From an uncultured Dehalococcoidales bacterium (GTDB lineage: Bacteria > Chloroflexota > Dehalococcoidia > Dehalococcoidales > UBA2162): a stretch of DNA of 61,036 nucleotides. The position numbers and the translations under genes are program-made. Below, piece after piece: positions 12,672-21,273 of the stretch (position 1 is its first letter; each line of letters opens with the position of its first letter). Under the pieces are notes generated by a model. The model ran no database searches. It was not told the origin of the DNA and worked only from the letters and a program-made list of their open reading frames with translations. The DNA lies in the NCBI GenBank assembly GCA_964489895.1, contig CAZBAN010000003.1, positions 1-61,036 of the forward strand, read 5' to 3'.

Positions 12672-13640
12672 ATGAAGACTGAAGACCGGCCCGTTTTAGC
12701 CGTAGACCTGGGCGGCACCAAGATGGTTATCGCCTTGGTCTCTCCCGATGGCAGGATTCCACGCAGACTTGACCTTACCACCTCAGCCACCGAAGGACAC
12801 AAGGTGGTTATCGAAAGGATGTTTTCCGGCATAGACAGCCTTCTCGGTAAAAGCGGTCTGTCCAGAGAGCAGTTGCGTGCTATAAGCATTGCCGCCGCCG
12901 GAATCATTGATATGGATGGGGGGATGATTACCGGGGCGCCCAACCTTCCCGACTGGAAGGATATTCCGCTGAAGCGTATCGTTGCGGAGAGATACGGAAT
13001 GGATACCTTTCTGGTCAACGATGCCGATGCGGCAATTCTGGGGGAGCACCGCTTCGGCGCCGGTGAAGGGCAGAACAACCTTGTCCTGCTGACGCTAGGT
13101 ACGGGGATCGGCGGCGGGATTATCATTGACGGGAAACTTTATACCGGCTCCTCAGGCGGCGGTGCCGAACTGGGGCATATGGTTATAAAGGAAGACGGAC
13201 CGGAGTGCGGCTGCGGTAATAACGGTTGTCTGGAGAGTCTGGCTTCCGGTACAGCTATTGCCAGAGAGGCTAAAAAGCGTATCGGTAAGGGTGAGAAGTC
13301 TTCACTTAATGAACTGGTTCACGGGAGACCGGATGATATTACCGCCGAGACAGTCCATCAGGCGGCTCAAGAGGGGGACTCTCTGGCTCTGGAGGTTATA
13401 GGTGAAGCAGCGCACTATCTGGGAATAGGCGTATTGAACCTTGTACAGATATTTAATCCGGAGATGGTTATTCTCGGGGGAAGCGTGGCGCAGATGGGCG
13501 ACCTGTTATTCGAGCCCGTCAGGAAAATGGTGAAAGAGAAAGCCTTCCCGCTGATGGCGAAATCCGTTCAAATCGTGCCGGCCAGACTCGGTAATGATGC
13601 CGGGGTTATCGGCGCGGCTGTTTTCGCCCTTGAACAATAA
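12672..13640 (+). CDS. ROK-family sugar kinase (glucokinase-like)
   Basis: AVDLGGTK N-terminus and the ROK zinc motif ELGHM...CGCGNNGCLE. I prefer ATG 12672 over the upstream TTG 12660. Confidence 0.8.
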   Translation: MKTEDRPVLAVDLGGTKMVIALVSPDGRIPRRLDLTTSATEGHKVVIERMFSGIDSLLGKSGLSREQLRAISIAAAGIIDMDGGMITGAPNLPDWKDIPLKRIVAERYGMDTFLVNDADAAILGEHRFGAGEGQNNLVLLTLGTGIGGGIIIDGKLYTGSSGGGAELGHMVIKEDGPECGCGNNGCLESLASGTAIAREAKKRIGKGEKSSLNELVHGRPDDITAETVHQAAQEGDSLALEVIGEAAHYLGIGVLNLVQIFNPEMVILGGSVAQMGDLLFEPVRKMVKEKAFPLMAKSVQIVPARLGNDAGVIGAAVFALEQ

Positions 13641-17346: not shown

Positions 17347-18537
17347 ATGAACAGTGCTGGTGATTTCCGTCTGGTGAAGACCTCCCCGGACAGCAGGGCT
17401 CGCGCCGGGGAACTGGTCACGGGTCACGGTACGGTACCGACTCCGGTGTTCATGCCCGTGGCTACCCAGGGAACGGTTAAAACACTCACCCCTGAAGAAG
17501 TAAAGGACATCGGGTTTAAGATGGTGCTGTCCAACACCTATCATCTCTACCTCAGACCGGGGATTTCGACTGTTGAGCAGGCAGGTGGTTTACATAAATA
17601 TATGAGCTGGGACAGAGCCATTCTTACCGACAGCGGCGGCTACCAGGTATTCAGTCTTGCCCGGTTGCGCCGCGTTGACGATGAAGGTGTTGTCTTCCGT
17701 TCTCATATAGACGGCAGCGAACACCTGATTACTCCGGAGCTGGCTGTGCAGTACCAGGAAGCAGTCGGTGCGGATATCATTATGGTGCTTGATGAGTGTA
17801 TATCCCATGACGAAAGCCTTGAGAAGACACGGCTCGCCATGAACCGCACTCACCAATGGGCGAAGCGGTGCCTTGAAGCCCATAAGCGCAGCGACCAGGC
17901 ACTGTATGCCATAATCCAGGGCGGGACATCGCTGGAACTCCGCCGTCAGTCAGCCGAGTACCTGACTTCGCTTGATTTTCCCGGCTATGCAATCGGCGGA
18001 CTTTGTATCGGTGAACCGAAGAAAGTGACCAATACCATGGTTGACGGGACAGTGGCTTATTTGCCGGAAAACAAACCACGCTATCTTATGGGGGTCGGTT
18101 CGCCCGAGGACCTCCTCGAAGGAGTATCCAGGGGGATTGACATGTTTGACAGCGCTCTGCCGACCCGCATTGCCAGAAACGGCTCTCTCTTTACCCGTCT
18201 CGGCAGGGTGAATATACGGAATGCCGCCTTCTCTCAGATACAGGGACCTGTAGAACCTGAATGTGAATGCTATACCTGCCGGACTTTCTCGGCGTCTTAT
18301 CTTCACCACCTGTTCGATACCAGGGAACTGCTGGCTTACAGGCTGGCGACCATTCACAATCTGACCTTCGTCTCCAGACTGATAACGGATATACGCCAGG
18401 CTATTCTTGATGACTCTTTTGTTTCTTACAAGAAAAAATTCCTGTCGAGTTACAGGACTACGGATGAACAGGTAAGGGTCGAGCAGAAACAGAAGTGGCT
18501 GAAAGCCCGGGAACAAAATGCCGATAATACGGCCTAA
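17347..18537 (+). CDS. tgt: Queuine tRNA-ribosyltransferase (tRNA-guanine transglycosylase)
   Basis: 396 aa. TPVFMPV, LTDSGGYQV, GLCIGE, and the zinc site CxCxxC...H. Confidence 0.93.
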   Translation: MNSAGDFRLVKTSPDSRARAGELVTGHGTVPTPVFMPVATQGTVKTLTPEEVKDIGFKMVLSNTYHLYLRPGISTVEQAGGLHKYMSWDRAILTDSGGYQVFSLARLRRVDDEGVVFRSHIDGSEHLITPELAVQYQEAVGADIIMVLDECISHDESLEKTRLAMNRTHQWAKRCLEAHKRSDQALYAIIQGGTSLELRRQSAEYLTSLDFPGYAIGGLCIGEPKKVTNTMVDGTVAYLPENKPRYLMGVGSPEDLLEGVSRGIDMFDSALPTRIARNGSLFTRLGRVNIRNAAFSQIQGPVEPECECYTCRTFSASYLHHLFDTRELLAYRLATIHNLTFVSRLITDIRQAILDDSFVSYKKKFLSSYRTTDEQVRVEQKQKWLKAREQNADNTA

Positions 18538-18589
18538 GGGGGTGAGTACTATTACTACCAAAACTGAGTACAACCCGCTTAAACTCGAT

Positions 18590-18618
18590 TTGACACGATT
18601 AAATTGATACTATACAAT
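18590..18618 (+). promoter_or_regulatory. Sigma70-type promoter driving the structured leader
   Basis: TTGACA (18590-18595), 17-nt spacer, TACAAT (18613-18618). Confidence 0.5.
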
Positions 18619-18625
18619 TAAACCA

Positions 18626-18787
18626 CTATCTAGATTACGGAATACGGGAGGAAATCGGTGCCGAACTGGGACGGACAGTCCAGCTTTAACAAAGGGGCTT
18701 CCCGCATGATGATGCCCTGGGCTTGGCATGCCGCCAGTTCGGGGACGATGCGAGCGTAATCCCCAGACTGATAGAGGTGCTGACCGG
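18626..18787 (+). promoter_or_regulatory. Unclassified structured RNA leader (candidate riboswitch, attenuator or small RNA)
   Basis: Three nested long-range helices: 18622-18630 with 18770-18778 (one mismatch), GATTACG 18633-18639 with CGTAATC 18755-18761, and CCGAACTGG 18661-18669 with CCAGTTCGG 18734-18742. The element lies between a promoter and an intrinsic terminator. Confidence 0.45.
18706..18759 (+). CDS. Candidate leader peptide MMMPWAWHAASSGTMRA (17 aa)
   Basis: ATGATGATG begins a 17-codon ORF inside the leader. AAAGGGG lies 8 nt upstream. 4 of 17 codons are Met. The stop codon lies inside one of the long-range helices. Confidence 0.3.
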   Translation: MMMPWAWHAASSGTMRA

Positions 18788-18820
18788 GCCCGGGTACGAT
18801 TGTATCCGGGCTTTTATTTT
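18788..18820 (+). terminator. Intrinsic terminator at the end of the leader
   Basis: GCCCGGGTA/TATCCGGGC stem (one G-U pair), 6-nt loop, then TTTTATTTT. Confidence 0.7.
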
Positions 18821-18836
18821 AACCGGAAACACCAAT

Positions 18837-18865
18837 TTGACAGTGCAGAATGCAGATATTAATAT
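18837..18865 (+). promoter_or_regulatory. Second sigma70-type promoter, immediately upstream of the COG1900 gene
   Basis: TTGACA (18837-18842), 17-nt spacer, TAATAT (18860-18865). RBS AGGAGG at 18870-18875. Confidence 0.45.
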
Positions 18866-18882
18866 CTTTAGGAGGCTGAAAC

Positions 18883-20091
18883 ATGGCTAAAACAGTCGAA
18901 CAGATAAACAAAAAGATAAAAGAAGGCAAGGCAGTAGTAGTTACTGCTGAAGAAATAATTGACCTGGTCAAAGAAAAGGGCGTGAAAAAAGCTGCCAGTG
19001 AAGTAGACGTTGTCACCACCGGTACTTTCAGCCCGATGTGCTCATCGAGTGCTTATTTCAACATCGGACACTCAAATCCTAGAATTAAATTGGCTGGAGG
19101 AAGGACGTATCTCAATGATGTCCCGGCATATACCGGAATGGCGGCAGTAGACCTGCTGATAGGTGCCACCGCCATTCCCGATGACGACCCCAGGAACAGA
19201 GTCCATCCCGGTGAATTCAACTACGGGGGCGGTCACGTTATCGAAGAACTCGTTGCTGGCAAAGACGTCAGGCTGGTGGCAACCGCTCACGGTACCGACT
19301 GCTACCCGCGGAGACGGCTGGAGACCTGGATTAACATCAAAGACCTGAATGAGGCGGTGCTCTTTAACCTCAGGAATGCCTGCCAGAATTACAACGTAGC
19401 CGTGAATCTTTCAGACAAAACTATTTATACCTACATGGGCATTCTAAAACCCCGCCTGGGCAATGCCAATTACTCCAGCGCCGGGCAGCTTTCACCGCTG
19501 TTCAACGATCCCTATTATAAGACAATTGGCATCGGCACCAGGGTATTCCTTGGAGGCGGTACCGGATTCGTTACCTGGCAGGGTACCCAGCACAATCCCG
19601 GAGTGCCCCGTAACGAAAAAGGAGTGCCGAAAAGCGGAGCCGGAACTCTGGCTTTAGTCGGCGACCTTAAGCAGATGAACTCGAAGTGGCTGGTTGGAAT
19701 CAGCATACTCGGTTACGGCTGCTCACTCAGCGTCGGCATCGGCGTACCCATACCGGTTCTTTCTGAAGAAATCCTGGAATACACGGCAATTACCGATGAC
19801 GACATAATAGCCACGATTATCGACTACTCCCAGGCATACCCCAATCTAGAGTCGGATAATCTGGGAGAAGTCACTTACGGGCAGCTCAGGAGCGGGCAGA
19901 TAAAGATACAGAACAAGAACGTGCCCACGGCTTCTCTTTCCAGCTACTCTCGCGCCGTGGAAATCGCAACCATACTGAAAAAGTGGATACAGGACGGCAA
20001 ATTCCTGCTTACGGAACCGGTAGCGCCCATACCCGGCGCAGACTCGGGCGTTACCTTCAAGCCGCTTAAAGAACGTCCGCTGGAGGGATAA
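18883..20091 (+). CDS. COG1900/DUF39 homocysteine biosynthesis protein (aspartate-semialdehyde sulfur-incorporation type)
   Basis: 402 aa. VVTAEE...VDVVTTGTFSPMCSS N-terminal pattern typical of COG1900. Followed by a NIL-ferredoxin gene, as in methanogens. Confidence 0.8.
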   Translation: MAKTVEQINKKIKEGKAVVVTAEEIIDLVKEKGVKKAASEVDVVTTGTFSPMCSSSAYFNIGHSNPRIKLAGGRTYLNDVPAYTGMAAVDLLIGATAIPDDDPRNRVHPGEFNYGGGHVIEELVAGKDVRLVATAHGTDCYPRRRLETWINIKDLNEAVLFNLRNACQNYNVAVNLSDKTIYTYMGILKPRLGNANYSSAGQLSPLFNDPYYKTIGIGTRVFLGGGTGFVTWQGTQHNPGVPRNEKGVPKSGAGTLALVGDLKQMNSKWLVGISILGYGCSLSVGIGVPIPVLSEEILEYTAITDDDIIATIIDYSQAYPNLESDNLGEVTYGQLRSGQIKIQNKNVPTASLSSYSRAVEIATILKKWIQDGKFLLTEPVAPIPGADSGVTFKPLKERPLEG

Positions 20092-20133: not shown

Positions 20134-20544
20134 ATGGCTACTTCAAAAAGGATAGTATTACGTTTCCCGAGGCGGCTGGTAGACCGGCCTATAGTCAGCC
20201 GTCTGGTAAGGGACTATAACCTCGATTTTAATATTCTCAAGGCATCGGTAACGCCTGAAGAGGAAGGCCTTCTGGTACTCGAAATGAGCGGAAAACAGGA
20301 CGATTACGATAAAGGTATCGAGTACCTGACCAAAACAGGCGTACAAATCCAGTCGCTCAGTCAGGACGTGACCCGAAACGAGGAAAGGTGTACTCATTGC
20401 GGGTTATGCGTGACCGTCTGTCCGGCAGGAGCTTTTGAGATGGACACCTCGACAAGGAAGATCAAGTTCCTCGACAAGAAGTGTATTGCCTGCGGGCTGT
20501 GTATCAAGGCATGCCCTCCGAGAGCCATGGAGCTGCATTTTTAA
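20134..20544 (+). CDS. NIL domain plus 2x[4Fe-4S] ferredoxin partner protein
   Basis: 136 aa. NIL-like N-terminal half, then CTHCGLCVTVCP and CIACGLCIKACP motifs. Confidence 0.8.
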   Translation: MATSKRIVLRFPRRLVDRPIVSRLVRDYNLDFNILKASVTPEEEGLLVLEMSGKQDDYDKGIEYLTKTGVQIQSLSQDVTRNEERCTHCGLCVTVCPAGAFEMDTSTRKIKFLDKKCIACGLCIKACPPRAMELHF

Positions 20545-20547
20545 CCG

Positions 20548-21273
20548 ATGTACCAGCCCAGATTATATCGCAGCCGGATTACCGGCAAAGACATGGTCGC
20601 CTTTAGCGTAACGGTTAAAGAGACGGATTTGTATATCCGCGCTCTGAAGAACCTTAAAAGCAAAGCCGGGAAACTGGTTATAAAATACCGCGAGATGCTG
20701 GAGAAATATATCGAGCGTCACCCGCTTTTCCTGACAACGCTCGAACCTTTCTCCCCCGGAGATGACGCTCCCGCGATAGTAAAAGTAATGGCAGACTCAG
20801 CCGCAGAGGCGGGAGTGGGTCCGATGGCGACGGTAGCGGGAGCAATTGCCGAATTCGTCGGCAACGGGCTGCTGGAATTTTCGCCGGAGGTAATCGTTGA
20901 GAACGGTGGCGACGTATTTCTGAAGAGCCTGAAAAATAGAATAGTAAGCATTTACGCCGGAGAGTCCCCCCTCAGCGAGAAAATAGGCCTGGAAATCCAG
21001 CCTGAAGAGACGCCTCTGGGAATCTGCACCTCCTCCGGGACGGTCGGACATTCGCTGAGTTACGGTCAGGCTGATGCTGTGGTGGCTGTATCTAAGTCCA
21101 CCCCGCTGGCTGACGCCGCCGCCACGGCAATAGCCAACCTTATAAGTAAGCCCGATGACATACCGAAAGGCATTGAGTTTGCTGAAAGTATCCGGGGGTT
21201 GAAAGGAACGGTTATAATAAAGGGTGACAGAATGGGAGTATGGGGCGATATAAAAATTAGCCAGACAGGTTAA
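20548..21273 (+). CDS. UPF0280 / COG2122 (ApbE-superfamily) protein
   Basis: 241 aa. Recalled family pattern (KETDLYI..., MATVAGAIAE) and genomic linkage to COG1900 genes. Confidence 0.6.
   Translation: MYQPRLYRSRITGKDMVAFSVTVKETDLYIRALKNLKSKAGKLVIKYREMLEKYIERHPLFLTTLEPFSPGDDAPAIVKVMADSAAEAGVGPMATVAGAIAEFVGNGLLEFSPEVIVENGGDVFLKSLKNRIVSIYAGESPLSEKIGLEIQPEETPLGICTSSGTVGHSLSYGQADAVVAVSKSTPLADAAATAIANLISKPDDIPKGIEFAESIRGLKGTVIIKGDRMGVWGDIKISQTG

Follow-up and report, generated by a model that had tools for sequence, protein, structure and literature searches.

A conserved leader with a run of methionine codons upstream of homocysteine-synthesis genes in Dehalococcoidales is a probable ribosome-mediated transcription attenuator

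The window analyzed here, a stretch of 61,036 nt from an uncultured Dehalococcoidales bacterium (assembly GCA_964489895.1, contig CAZBAN010000003.1, positions 1 to 61,036), carries at positions 18590 to 18882 a leader with its own promoter and terminator, located upstream of a gene for a COG1900/HcyBio homocysteine-synthesis enzyme. We regard this leader as probably (rough probability 0.62) a ribosome-mediated transcription attenuator of the trpL type that senses charged elongator Met-tRNA, and not as a metabolite riboswitch. This reading is based on conserved sequence elements, on covariation in the terminator, and on the association of the leader with three different Met genes. The leader was assigned to the trpL type because a Shine-Dalgarno (SD) sequence and a start codon precede a frame that stays open, a run of Met codons adjoins one strand of a predicted antiterminator, and the stop codon lies in the loop of a hairpin. 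The elements concerned are as follows, in window coordinates.

18590..18618, + strand: promoter P1 of the leader transcript, TTGACA-17-TACAAT, 11/12 consensus matches
18647..18651, + strand: SD sequence GGAGG of the leader open reading frame (ORF), 6 nt upstream of the GTG start
18658..18759, + strand: putative leader ORF, 33 codons plus stop, MPNW followed by 12 variable codons and MMM-PWAWHAASSGTM-RA
18661..18669, + strand: 5′ strand of helix H1, codons 2-4, CCGAACUGG, pairing with CCAGUUCGG at 18734-18742
18694..18698, + strand: 5′ strand of helix P2, GGGGC, pairing with GCCCU at 18714-18718, with the MMM codons in the loop
18706..18714, + strand: three consecutive Met codons (codons 17-19), ATGATGATG, the proposed sensor
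18716..18726, + strand: 5′ strand of the predicted antiterminator, codons 20-23 (PWAW), CCUGGGCUUGG, pairing with 18784-18794
18735..18745, + strand: 5′ strand of hairpin H4, CAGUU-C-GGGGA, overlapping the 3′ strand of H1 (18734-42)
18748..18759, + strand: fourth Met codon (18748-50) and stop codon (18757-59), both inside the H4 loop
18760..18770, + strand: 3′ strand of H4, UCCCCAGACUG (UCCCC-AGACUG), non-coding; hairpin −16.9 kcal/mol
18784-94, + strand: 3′ strand of the predicted antiterminator, CCGGGCCCGGG, the terminator 5′ arm plus two C's outside the stem
18786-18820, + strand: intrinsic terminator with 12 pairs, 5′ arm 18786-97, loop 18798-18801, 3′ arm 18802-13, U-tract 18812-20
18837..18865, + strand: second promoter, TTGACA-17-TAATAT, between the candidate attenuator and the COG1900 gene
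18883..20091, + strand: COG1900/HcyBio homocysteine-synthesis enzyme gene, the first gene under the proposed regulation (PF01837, E 4e-153)

The initial annotation, made from the letters of the window, had reported the two promoters, a strong terminator, and a downstream homocysteine-synthesis gene, and all four were confirmed: P1 and the second promoter at the positions and with the spacing listed above, the gene from its start at 18883 with its PF01837 match, and the terminator with a stem at 18786-18813, a U-tract to about 18820, and covariation among 43 relatives. The 213-nt leader was also more stably folded than its shuffles (z = −3.2). Three elements were absent from that earlier description, namely the ORF from GTG 18658, the hairpin 18735-45/18760-70, and the antiterminator 18716-26/18784-94.

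The DNA search recovered the leader in 14 of the 61 close relatives and, across Dehalococcoidales, in about 45 of 363 genomes, belonging to at least five families; altogether, it is conserved in about 47 genomes of the order. A P1 equivalent (TTGACA-17/18-TAnAAT) was found 25-46 nt upstream of the leader start codon at all 44 of the 44 related loci, and the leader lay 150-250 nt upstream of a COG1900 start codon in 42 of the 45 loci of the first set. The three first-set loci without COG1900 were L030, located at a contig end, and L014 and L051, which precede other genes (loci, genomes, contigs, and families are designated by L, G, C, and f, respectively); L051 was not picked up by the first BLAST. 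When 185,579 species genomes were scanned for the exact pattern, 34 matches were obtained against 0.27 expected by our own estimate. All except three of these were labelled Chloroflexota, mainly as metagenome-assembled genomes of Dehalococcoidales or Dehalococcoidia. The three exceptions by label were one Planctomycetaceae and two Deltaproteobacteria, and one of them, L102, is a contig of G089, a genome classified in Dehalococcoidales. The pattern ATGATGATG-N6-GCNTGGC, run over the 363 genomes, gave eight additional matches. Seven were dropped as chance, being inside long ORFs or without a terminator, and the only true extra leader copy was L063, whose peptide carries MMMM. The weak BLAST matches L053-L056 and L058-L062 contained no leader after re-scoring with nhmmer. 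Two alignments were used for comparison, A1 with 43 leader sequences and A2 with these plus eleven paralogous cassettes (see below).

The genes downstream of the MMM leader were COG1900 genes at 44 loci, metY-type genes at 2, and a methionyl-tRNA synthetase (MetRS) gene at 1. The MetRS gene is that of L014 (PF09334, E 8e-104), and the leader of L051 precedes a gene for a Cys/Met-metabolism pyridoxal phosphate enzyme with an O-acetylhomoserine sulfhydrylase-type N-terminus (PF01053, E 4e-133). Genome G152 carries two leader copies, one upstream of COG1900 (with an MMMM peptide) and the other upstream of metY. With L030 ending at the contig border, all MMM copies with a readable downstream gene were located upstream of a methionine-pathway or MetRS gene. 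The presence of a MetRS gene among the targets is in keeping with a sensor of tRNA charging. As known from T-box and S-box regulons, MetRS genes are typically controlled by such sensors and not by S-adenosylmethionine (SAM) riboswitches.

The putative leader ORF starts with GTG in 39 of the 43 relatives, TTG in three, and ATG in one (window position 18658), and an SD-like core (GGAG, GAGG, or AGGA) is present 4-12 nt before the start in 42 of the 43. The frame is free of stop codons from the start to MMM in 43/43 sequences, the other two frames containing stops in 18/43 and 31/43, and the sole indel in this interval is 3 nt long. ORF length across the relatives is 31-33 codons. Codons 2-4 are conserved as CCGAACUGG and codons 5-16 are freely variable, with entropies of 0.91, 1.10, and 1.18 by codon position and no third-position excess. 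The Met run was ATGATGATG in 41 of the 43 aligned relatives and coded for MIM and MVM in the remaining two, with an entropy of 0.00-0.05 for MMM; it always abuts the antiterminator strand, with zero indels between them. After MMM comes a near-invariant P-W-A-W-(H/R)-A-A-S-S-G-x-M, then 0-2 codons, and then the stop. In this 3′ half, the three codon positions are conserved to the same degree. The distance from the fourth Met codon to the stop is 0-2 codons in nearly all relatives, 0-3 in L042, L063, and L051, and L057 diverges. The fourth Met codon itself (18748-18750) is kept in 42 of the 43 relatives.

A shorter ORF of 17 codons beginning at MMM was disfavoured, as the comparative data point to the longer ORF from 18658. 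An exact look-up of the leader peptide in a collection of 15 billion predicted proteins found it absent, and the leader ORF is therefore not called by gene callers. Freely changing codons 5-16 next to a near-invariant MMM are, as far as the alignment indicates, typical of a leader peptide and not of a functional protein. Judged in the same way, the frame is kept open although the peptide itself is under no obvious selection, and the conserved half appears to be constrained at the RNA level. At the level of sequence, then, the leader has an apparent ribosome-binding site, a start codon, and a short ORF, and this ORF contains a run of codons for the amino acid of the downstream genes (MMM and Met genes).

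A Rho-independent terminator lies between this ORF and the structural genes. In the 43 relatives it is 98% paired, with 6 pairs changed on both sides and a stem of 11-12 bp. Codons 20-23 are complementary to the 5′ arm of this terminator and to the two C's at 18784-85 outside its stem, the first of which is invariant and the second nearly so. The antiterminator so predicted is 86-90% paired (90% on A1 versus 62% or less when the strands are slid). At one pair, U-A is replaced by C-G in three sequences of A1 and eight sequences of A2, and in three sequences a synonymous change of GCU to GCC is coupled with a change of A to G in the antiterminator partner. On A2, 17 antiterminator cells are changed on both sides compared with 11 ± 2.8 in shuffles (10/500), and three pairs are compensatory. 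Thus, the antiterminator is suggested mainly by conserved complementarity, with modest covariation in the aligned sequences.

Upstream of the terminator, H1 is paired in 95% of cells on A1, with U-A changed to C-G in three sequences, and P2 in 91%, five sequences having A-U in place of G-C. P2 pairing sequesters the first part of the antiterminator strand (shared nucleotides 18716-18). H4, which was assessed only on the raw MAFFT alignment and on folds of the individual sequences, was predicted in nearly all relatives and is 85% paired in that alignment, 3-4 sequences having G-C in place of A-U. The stop codon falls within the H4 loop in nearly all relatives, L057 being divergent. Altogether, H1, P2, H4, and the antiterminator are 85-95% paired versus about 60% or less when slid, with few compensatory changes in each. 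Strands are shared by P2 and the antiterminator (18716-18), by the antiterminator and the terminator (18786-94), and by H1 and H4 (18734-42), so that H1 and H4 are mutually exclusive. Therefore, the leader has two exclusive folds, an OFF fold of H1, P2, and the terminator and an ON fold in which the antiterminator encloses H4. A strand common to antiterminator and terminator, together with an upstream competitor structure, is what is found in leader-peptide attenuators. The predicted energies in the window are −36.4 kcal/mol for the 5′ domain of H1 and P2, −16.9 kcal/mol for H4 alone, −43.4 kcal/mol for the antiterminator with H4, and −20.7 kcal/mol for the terminator. The initial annotation had described three nested long-range helices, of which the innermost corresponds to H1 (18661-69/18734-42) and is retained. 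The two outer ones (GAUUACG/CGUAAUC and AUCG/CGAU) were discarded, as only 48% of their cells are paired in the 43 relatives, which is the level of the shuffled and slid controls.

The effect of a ribosome on these folds was modelled by folding the 43 sequences with a ribosome at successive codons, such that only RNA 3′ of the ribosome was foldable, and with the transcript cut before the 3′ arm of the terminator. With the A site at Met17, the probability of the antiterminator was 0.98 in 42 of the 43 sequences, whether the leading edge of the ribosome was placed at +12 or +15. With the A site at Met18 it was 0.98 for the +12 edge and 0.40 for the +15 edge, at Met19 it was 0.40 and 0.07, respectively, and from codon 20 through the stop it was 0. 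In these folds, the Met run therefore comprises the last positions where a stalled ribosome disrupts the 5′ domain with the antiterminator strand still free. The model also predicts the stall geometry of the class, in that a ribosome on the sensor codons would free the antiterminator and a ribosome on the stop codon would prevent it. When the full leader was folded at equilibrium under ribosome masks, the terminator was always obtained and the states could not be separated; the cut transcript was therefore folded instead.

From these features we infer that the ORF is translated, that ribosomes stall at the Met codons, and in which direction the switch works, as follows. P1 would give a transcript of about 195 nt, and the 33-codon ORF would be translated while the polymerase is still transcribing the leader. 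By default, or when methionine is replete, H1 would join codons 2-4 to codons 26-28 and P2 would join GGGGC to GCCCU; alternatively, the ribosome would reach the stop codon in the H4 loop, cover H4, and sit between both antiterminator strands. Codons 20-23 would in this state be kept from the 5′ arm of the terminator, the terminator (18786-18820) would form, and transcription would stop. When Met-tRNA is scarce, the ribosome would stall with the first or second Met codon in the A site, lying on GGGGC (18694-98) and between the H1 strands, so that H1 and P2 would be held apart. The strand 18716-26 would then be just beyond the leading edge of the ribosome, H4 would form, and 18716-26 would pair with 18784-94 around H4. 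No terminator would form, and the polymerase would continue into the COG1900 operon. The second promoter is assumed to provide, probably, basal expression, with read-through from P1 on top.

The initial annotation had interpreted the leader as an attenuating riboswitch and had recognized no known class in it. With Rfam 15, cmscan of the whole window gave zero families at the gathering threshold, and a permissive scan of 18500-18920 (E up to 10) gave only unrelated families at chance level (E 0.85-9), in agreement with the latter point. The leader was unmatched by the Rfam 15 covariance models of SAM-I to SAM-VI, S-adenosylhomocysteine (SAH), cobalamin, tetrahydrofolate, and other riboswitches, and by the T-box model RF00230 with its specifier loop and T-box sequence. 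The host genome has two T-box matches, both on other contigs, and a SAM-I riboswitch was not found in it. Of the riboswitch interpretation, the cis-acting, terminator-based design with its own promoter and the link to methionine stand, and the ligand-binding sensor is given up in favour of the conserved translation signals found in its place.

A new metabolite riboswitch would require the domain of H1 and P2, with its AUGAUGAUG loop, to bind SAM, SAH, methionine, or homocysteine; the ligand would stabilize an anti-antiterminator, the terminator would form, and the open frame would be incidental. The arrangement of a promoter, a structured domain, and a terminator with a mutually exclusive antiterminator would suit such an element, as would the regulon of Met genes, the very high nucleotide conservation at all three codon positions of 18706-18745, and the lack of SAM-I in the host genome. 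We nevertheless consider it very improbable. In addition to the absence of Rfam matches, an SD sequence, variation of the start codon among start codons only, a frame-specific lack of stops, and indels of 3 nt are unexpected for a non-coding aptamer, and the 36 nt between H1 and P2 are freely variable, leaving little conserved unpaired sequence for a ligand pocket. The conserved nucleotides are explained by the alternative helices and the Met codons, and a MetRS gene target belongs, as stated above, with tRNA-charging sensors and not with SAM riboswitches.

The conservation of codons 17-31 could also indicate an arrest peptide similar to TnaC or plant CGS1, of which the C-terminal MMMPWAW(R/H)AASSGxM would, from within the exit tunnel, stall the ribosome on free methionine or SAM. 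The RNA fold would then be determined by this arrested ribosome and not by a hungry codon. Trp residues 10-12 positions from the C-terminus, a Met codon conserved 0-2 codons upstream of the stop, and a stop codon within the regulatory hairpin are in line with this proposal. The third positions of codons 20-29 are, however, as conserved as the first and second positions, the conservation coincides with RNA helices, and non-conservative changes occur where pairing allows them (W21 to R, C, L, Q, or G, and H24 to R, C, or P). The change of S27 to G is accompanied by a compensating base change, and the C-terminal tail is of variable length (0 to 2 residues). Moreover, a ribosome arrested near the stop sits between the antiterminator strands, an arrangement that would give termination upon ligand binding only if arrest were the OFF signal, which is conceivable but needs extra assumptions. 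On the other hand, W23, Met31, and the Ser-Gly at codons 28-29 hardly vary, and peptide and RNA constraints are inseparable there. We consider an arrest peptide at this locus quite unlikely.

Another possibility, touched on in the initial annotation as an independent small RNA, is that P1, the ORF, and the terminator form a self-contained unit encoding a micropeptide or a trans-acting RNA, with the COG1900 operon driven by the second promoter only and the terminator serving as an insulator. The leader does have its own strong promoter and an efficient-looking terminator that always wins at equilibrium, and the second, consensus-like promoter is conserved across four to five families; in the form TTGACAG … TAnTATC it was found in f1, f26, f44, f49, and part of f35. 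No promoter-like site was found between the terminator and the gene at L014 (metG) and L051 (metY), and by eye the TTGACAG promoter was absent after the terminator at the f35 COG1900 loci L044, L047, L049, and L050. Expression at these promoter-less loci must therefore pass the attenuator. This speaks against an independent unit, as do the variable half of the peptide, which has no purifying-selection pattern, and the presence of the cassette with three unrelated Met genes. Furthermore, a plain terminator would have no use for the two C's that precede its stem or for the GG that matches them in the ORF. On balance, we judge an independent small gene or RNA to be of low probability.

The second promoter may serve for basal expression, or it may be targeted by a repressor. 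At L057 (G321:C268), the MMM leader is followed by an Rrf2-family regulator gene (PF02082) and then by a metY-type gene, and a strong TTGACA-17-TATAAT promoter is present between the terminator and the Rrf2/metY genes. In the window, the COG1900 gene is followed by a NIL-ferredoxin gene (20134-20544, PF09383 plus Fer4), an ORF of 241 aa, and a ThiF-family gene. The 241-aa ORF (20548-21273) gave no Pfam match at E ≤ 0.01.

The host genome carries a second, diverged cassette on contig C6 at about 12692-12852 on the minus strand, which corresponds to L105:2293-2453 (nhmmer E 3e-6). It consists of a promoter, a 31-codon ORF (MKAGNW…PPMIIGGRAWRVSSFST), an antiterminator complement, and the terminator GCCCGGGAAGAGAAAAUCCCGGG; its peptide has M-I-I at the place of MMM. 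It is located upstream of a gene for a class I SAM-dependent methyltransferase (L105:1514-2266, minus strand). Relatives contain up to three or more further cassettes, and several such units of a small ORF plus a terminator are present in genomes of family f1. Such paralogous cassettes are linked to methyltransferase genes in L107, L109, L112, L115, and L052, to GNAT acetyltransferase genes in L108, L110, L111, L113, and L116, and to a tautomerase-like gene in L114. Their leader ORFs have 26-43 codons, mostly 31-36, and the codons at the sensor position specify I-I, I-V-I, or M-C-C. In 10 of the 11 cassettes tabulated, 55-59 nt separate the end of the antiterminator complement from the terminator; in L113 the distance is 50 nt (L108 was not in the table). 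An H1-like helix in the paralogs covaries, with CUGGAA/UUCCAG changed to CCGGAA/UUCCGG.

Paralogs of like architecture that lack a Met run and precede genes for SAM methyltransferases, GNAT acetyltransferases, and a tautomerase-like protein would be expected if the element were a generic translation-coupled attenuator of the ermC or pyrBI type, sensing the speed or availability of ribosomes, with MMM as a quirk of the lineage. MMM or MMMM is, however, kept in all copies at Met genes, in at least five families, and the paralogs have other codons there. The restriction of MMM copies with a readable downstream gene to methionine-pathway and MetRS genes likewise disagrees with generic sensing, which we hold to be rather improbable. 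The paralogs could also mean that the Met leader is one of a modular, multi-copy family of leader-peptide attenuators in Dehalococcoidales with swappable sensor codons; we consider this unlikely, together with the alternative of a metabolite-sensing arrest peptide. The modules would have a common scaffold, comprising a clamp helix, an antiterminator placed about 56 nt ahead of the terminator, and terminators resembling one another, and would carry MMM before Met genes, I-I or I-V-I before SAM methyltransferase genes, and M-C-C before GNAT acetyltransferase genes. Such codon swapping might, by analogy, resemble the swaps of specifier codons in T-boxes.

Several observations weigh against an attenuator that senses charged Met-tRNA. 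The conserved fourth Met codon has no role in the stalled-ribosome model. Since the terminator always wins at equilibrium, the switch must be kinetic, as in other attenuators. Naked RNA with the same cut favours the antiterminator (0.68), and the OFF default of an untranslated leader therefore leans on assumed co-transcriptional trapping. The Met codons are unusually near the antiterminator strand; with the +15 edge, a stall would be productive at the first Met codon only, and a stall at the third would favour termination. Covariation in the antiterminator is not above the shuffle control on A1 (109/500), and with the paralogs added it is modestly above shuffles (10/500, 49/500). Lastly, paralogous cassettes without Met runs precede methyltransferase and acetyltransferase genes, and most genomes retain a strong-looking promoter downstream of the terminator.

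The classical regulators of methionine genes are SAM riboswitches, T-boxes, and the MetJ and MetR proteins, and leader-peptide attenuation is familiar from textbooks for Trp, His, Phe, Leu, Thr, and Ile/Val. To our knowledge, it is not established for Met. On sequence-level grounds, the Met leader has every defining feature of the trpL/hisL-type class. Similar to trpL, hisL, pheL, thrL, leuL, and ilvL, it has a short ORF in which codons for the regulated amino acid form a run, and it precedes biosynthetic genes of the sensed amino acid. It also has a terminator with a strand-sharing antiterminator, an upstream helix that would sequester the antiterminator strand, and a stop placed such that a terminating ribosome would block the antiterminating fold. 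Unlike the enterobacterial leaders, it concerns methionine, occurs in Dehalococcoidales (Chloroflexota), and shows zero sequence similarity to them. It further differs in that the antiterminator is a long-range pairing around H4 instead of a simple 2:3 hairpin, that an extra clamp helix joins codons 2-4 to codons 26-28, and that a second promoter follows the terminator. The sensor codons of the Met leader are directly against the antiterminator strand, at 12 nt; in trpL, about 20 nt lie between the sensor codons and the antiterminator strand.

T-boxes with a Met specifier and SAM riboswitches share with the Met leader the control of methionine biosynthesis genes by a terminator and an antiterminator, and the T-box also controls MetRS genes and reads tRNA charging. 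The Met leader is distinguished from them by the lack of a match to RF00230 or RF00162, of a specifier loop, and of a T-box sequence, and by sensing that would be ribosome-based. TnaC and Arabidopsis CGS1 (MTO1) likewise have a short upstream coding sequence that acts by way of ribosome stalling. CGS1 is SAM-responsive and controls methionine synthesis, and both TnaC and CGS1 need specific nascent-chain residues and a bound ligand. In the Met leader, by comparison, conservation follows the RNA helices and residues change where pairing allows.

Full-text searches of the literature found no established Met leader-peptide attenuator, apart from the prediction of 'metL' in Streptomyces lividans. 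In that report, 'metL', upstream of metNIQ in strain TK24, is described as a Met-dependent attenuator predicted from RNA-seq (PMC8079986). As described there, it is similar to the Met leader in having a short ORF with Met codons before a methionine-related operon, and it differs in having scattered Met and Cys codons (…CMCRRMCAF) and no run (PMC8079986). It differs in phylum, target gene, and RNA, its sequence is unrelated, and the annotation, as described there, is an unvalidated one, given with neither comparative nor experimental support (PMC8079986). According to a survey in 2010, the leader-peptide systems known at that time were confined to Proteobacteria, Actinobacteria, and, as a new addition, Firmicutes (PMC2965389).

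If the Met leader operates as proposed, runs of elongator Met codons can act as a starvation sensor, and ribosome-mediated attenuation would extend to Chloroflexota. The leader would also mark an unannotated gene of 33 codons overlooked by gene callers, and a conserved leader would be spared classification as an orphan riboswitch candidate. It would, moreover, offer a first point of access to the regulation of the methanogen-type (COG1900) homocysteine pathway in bacteria.

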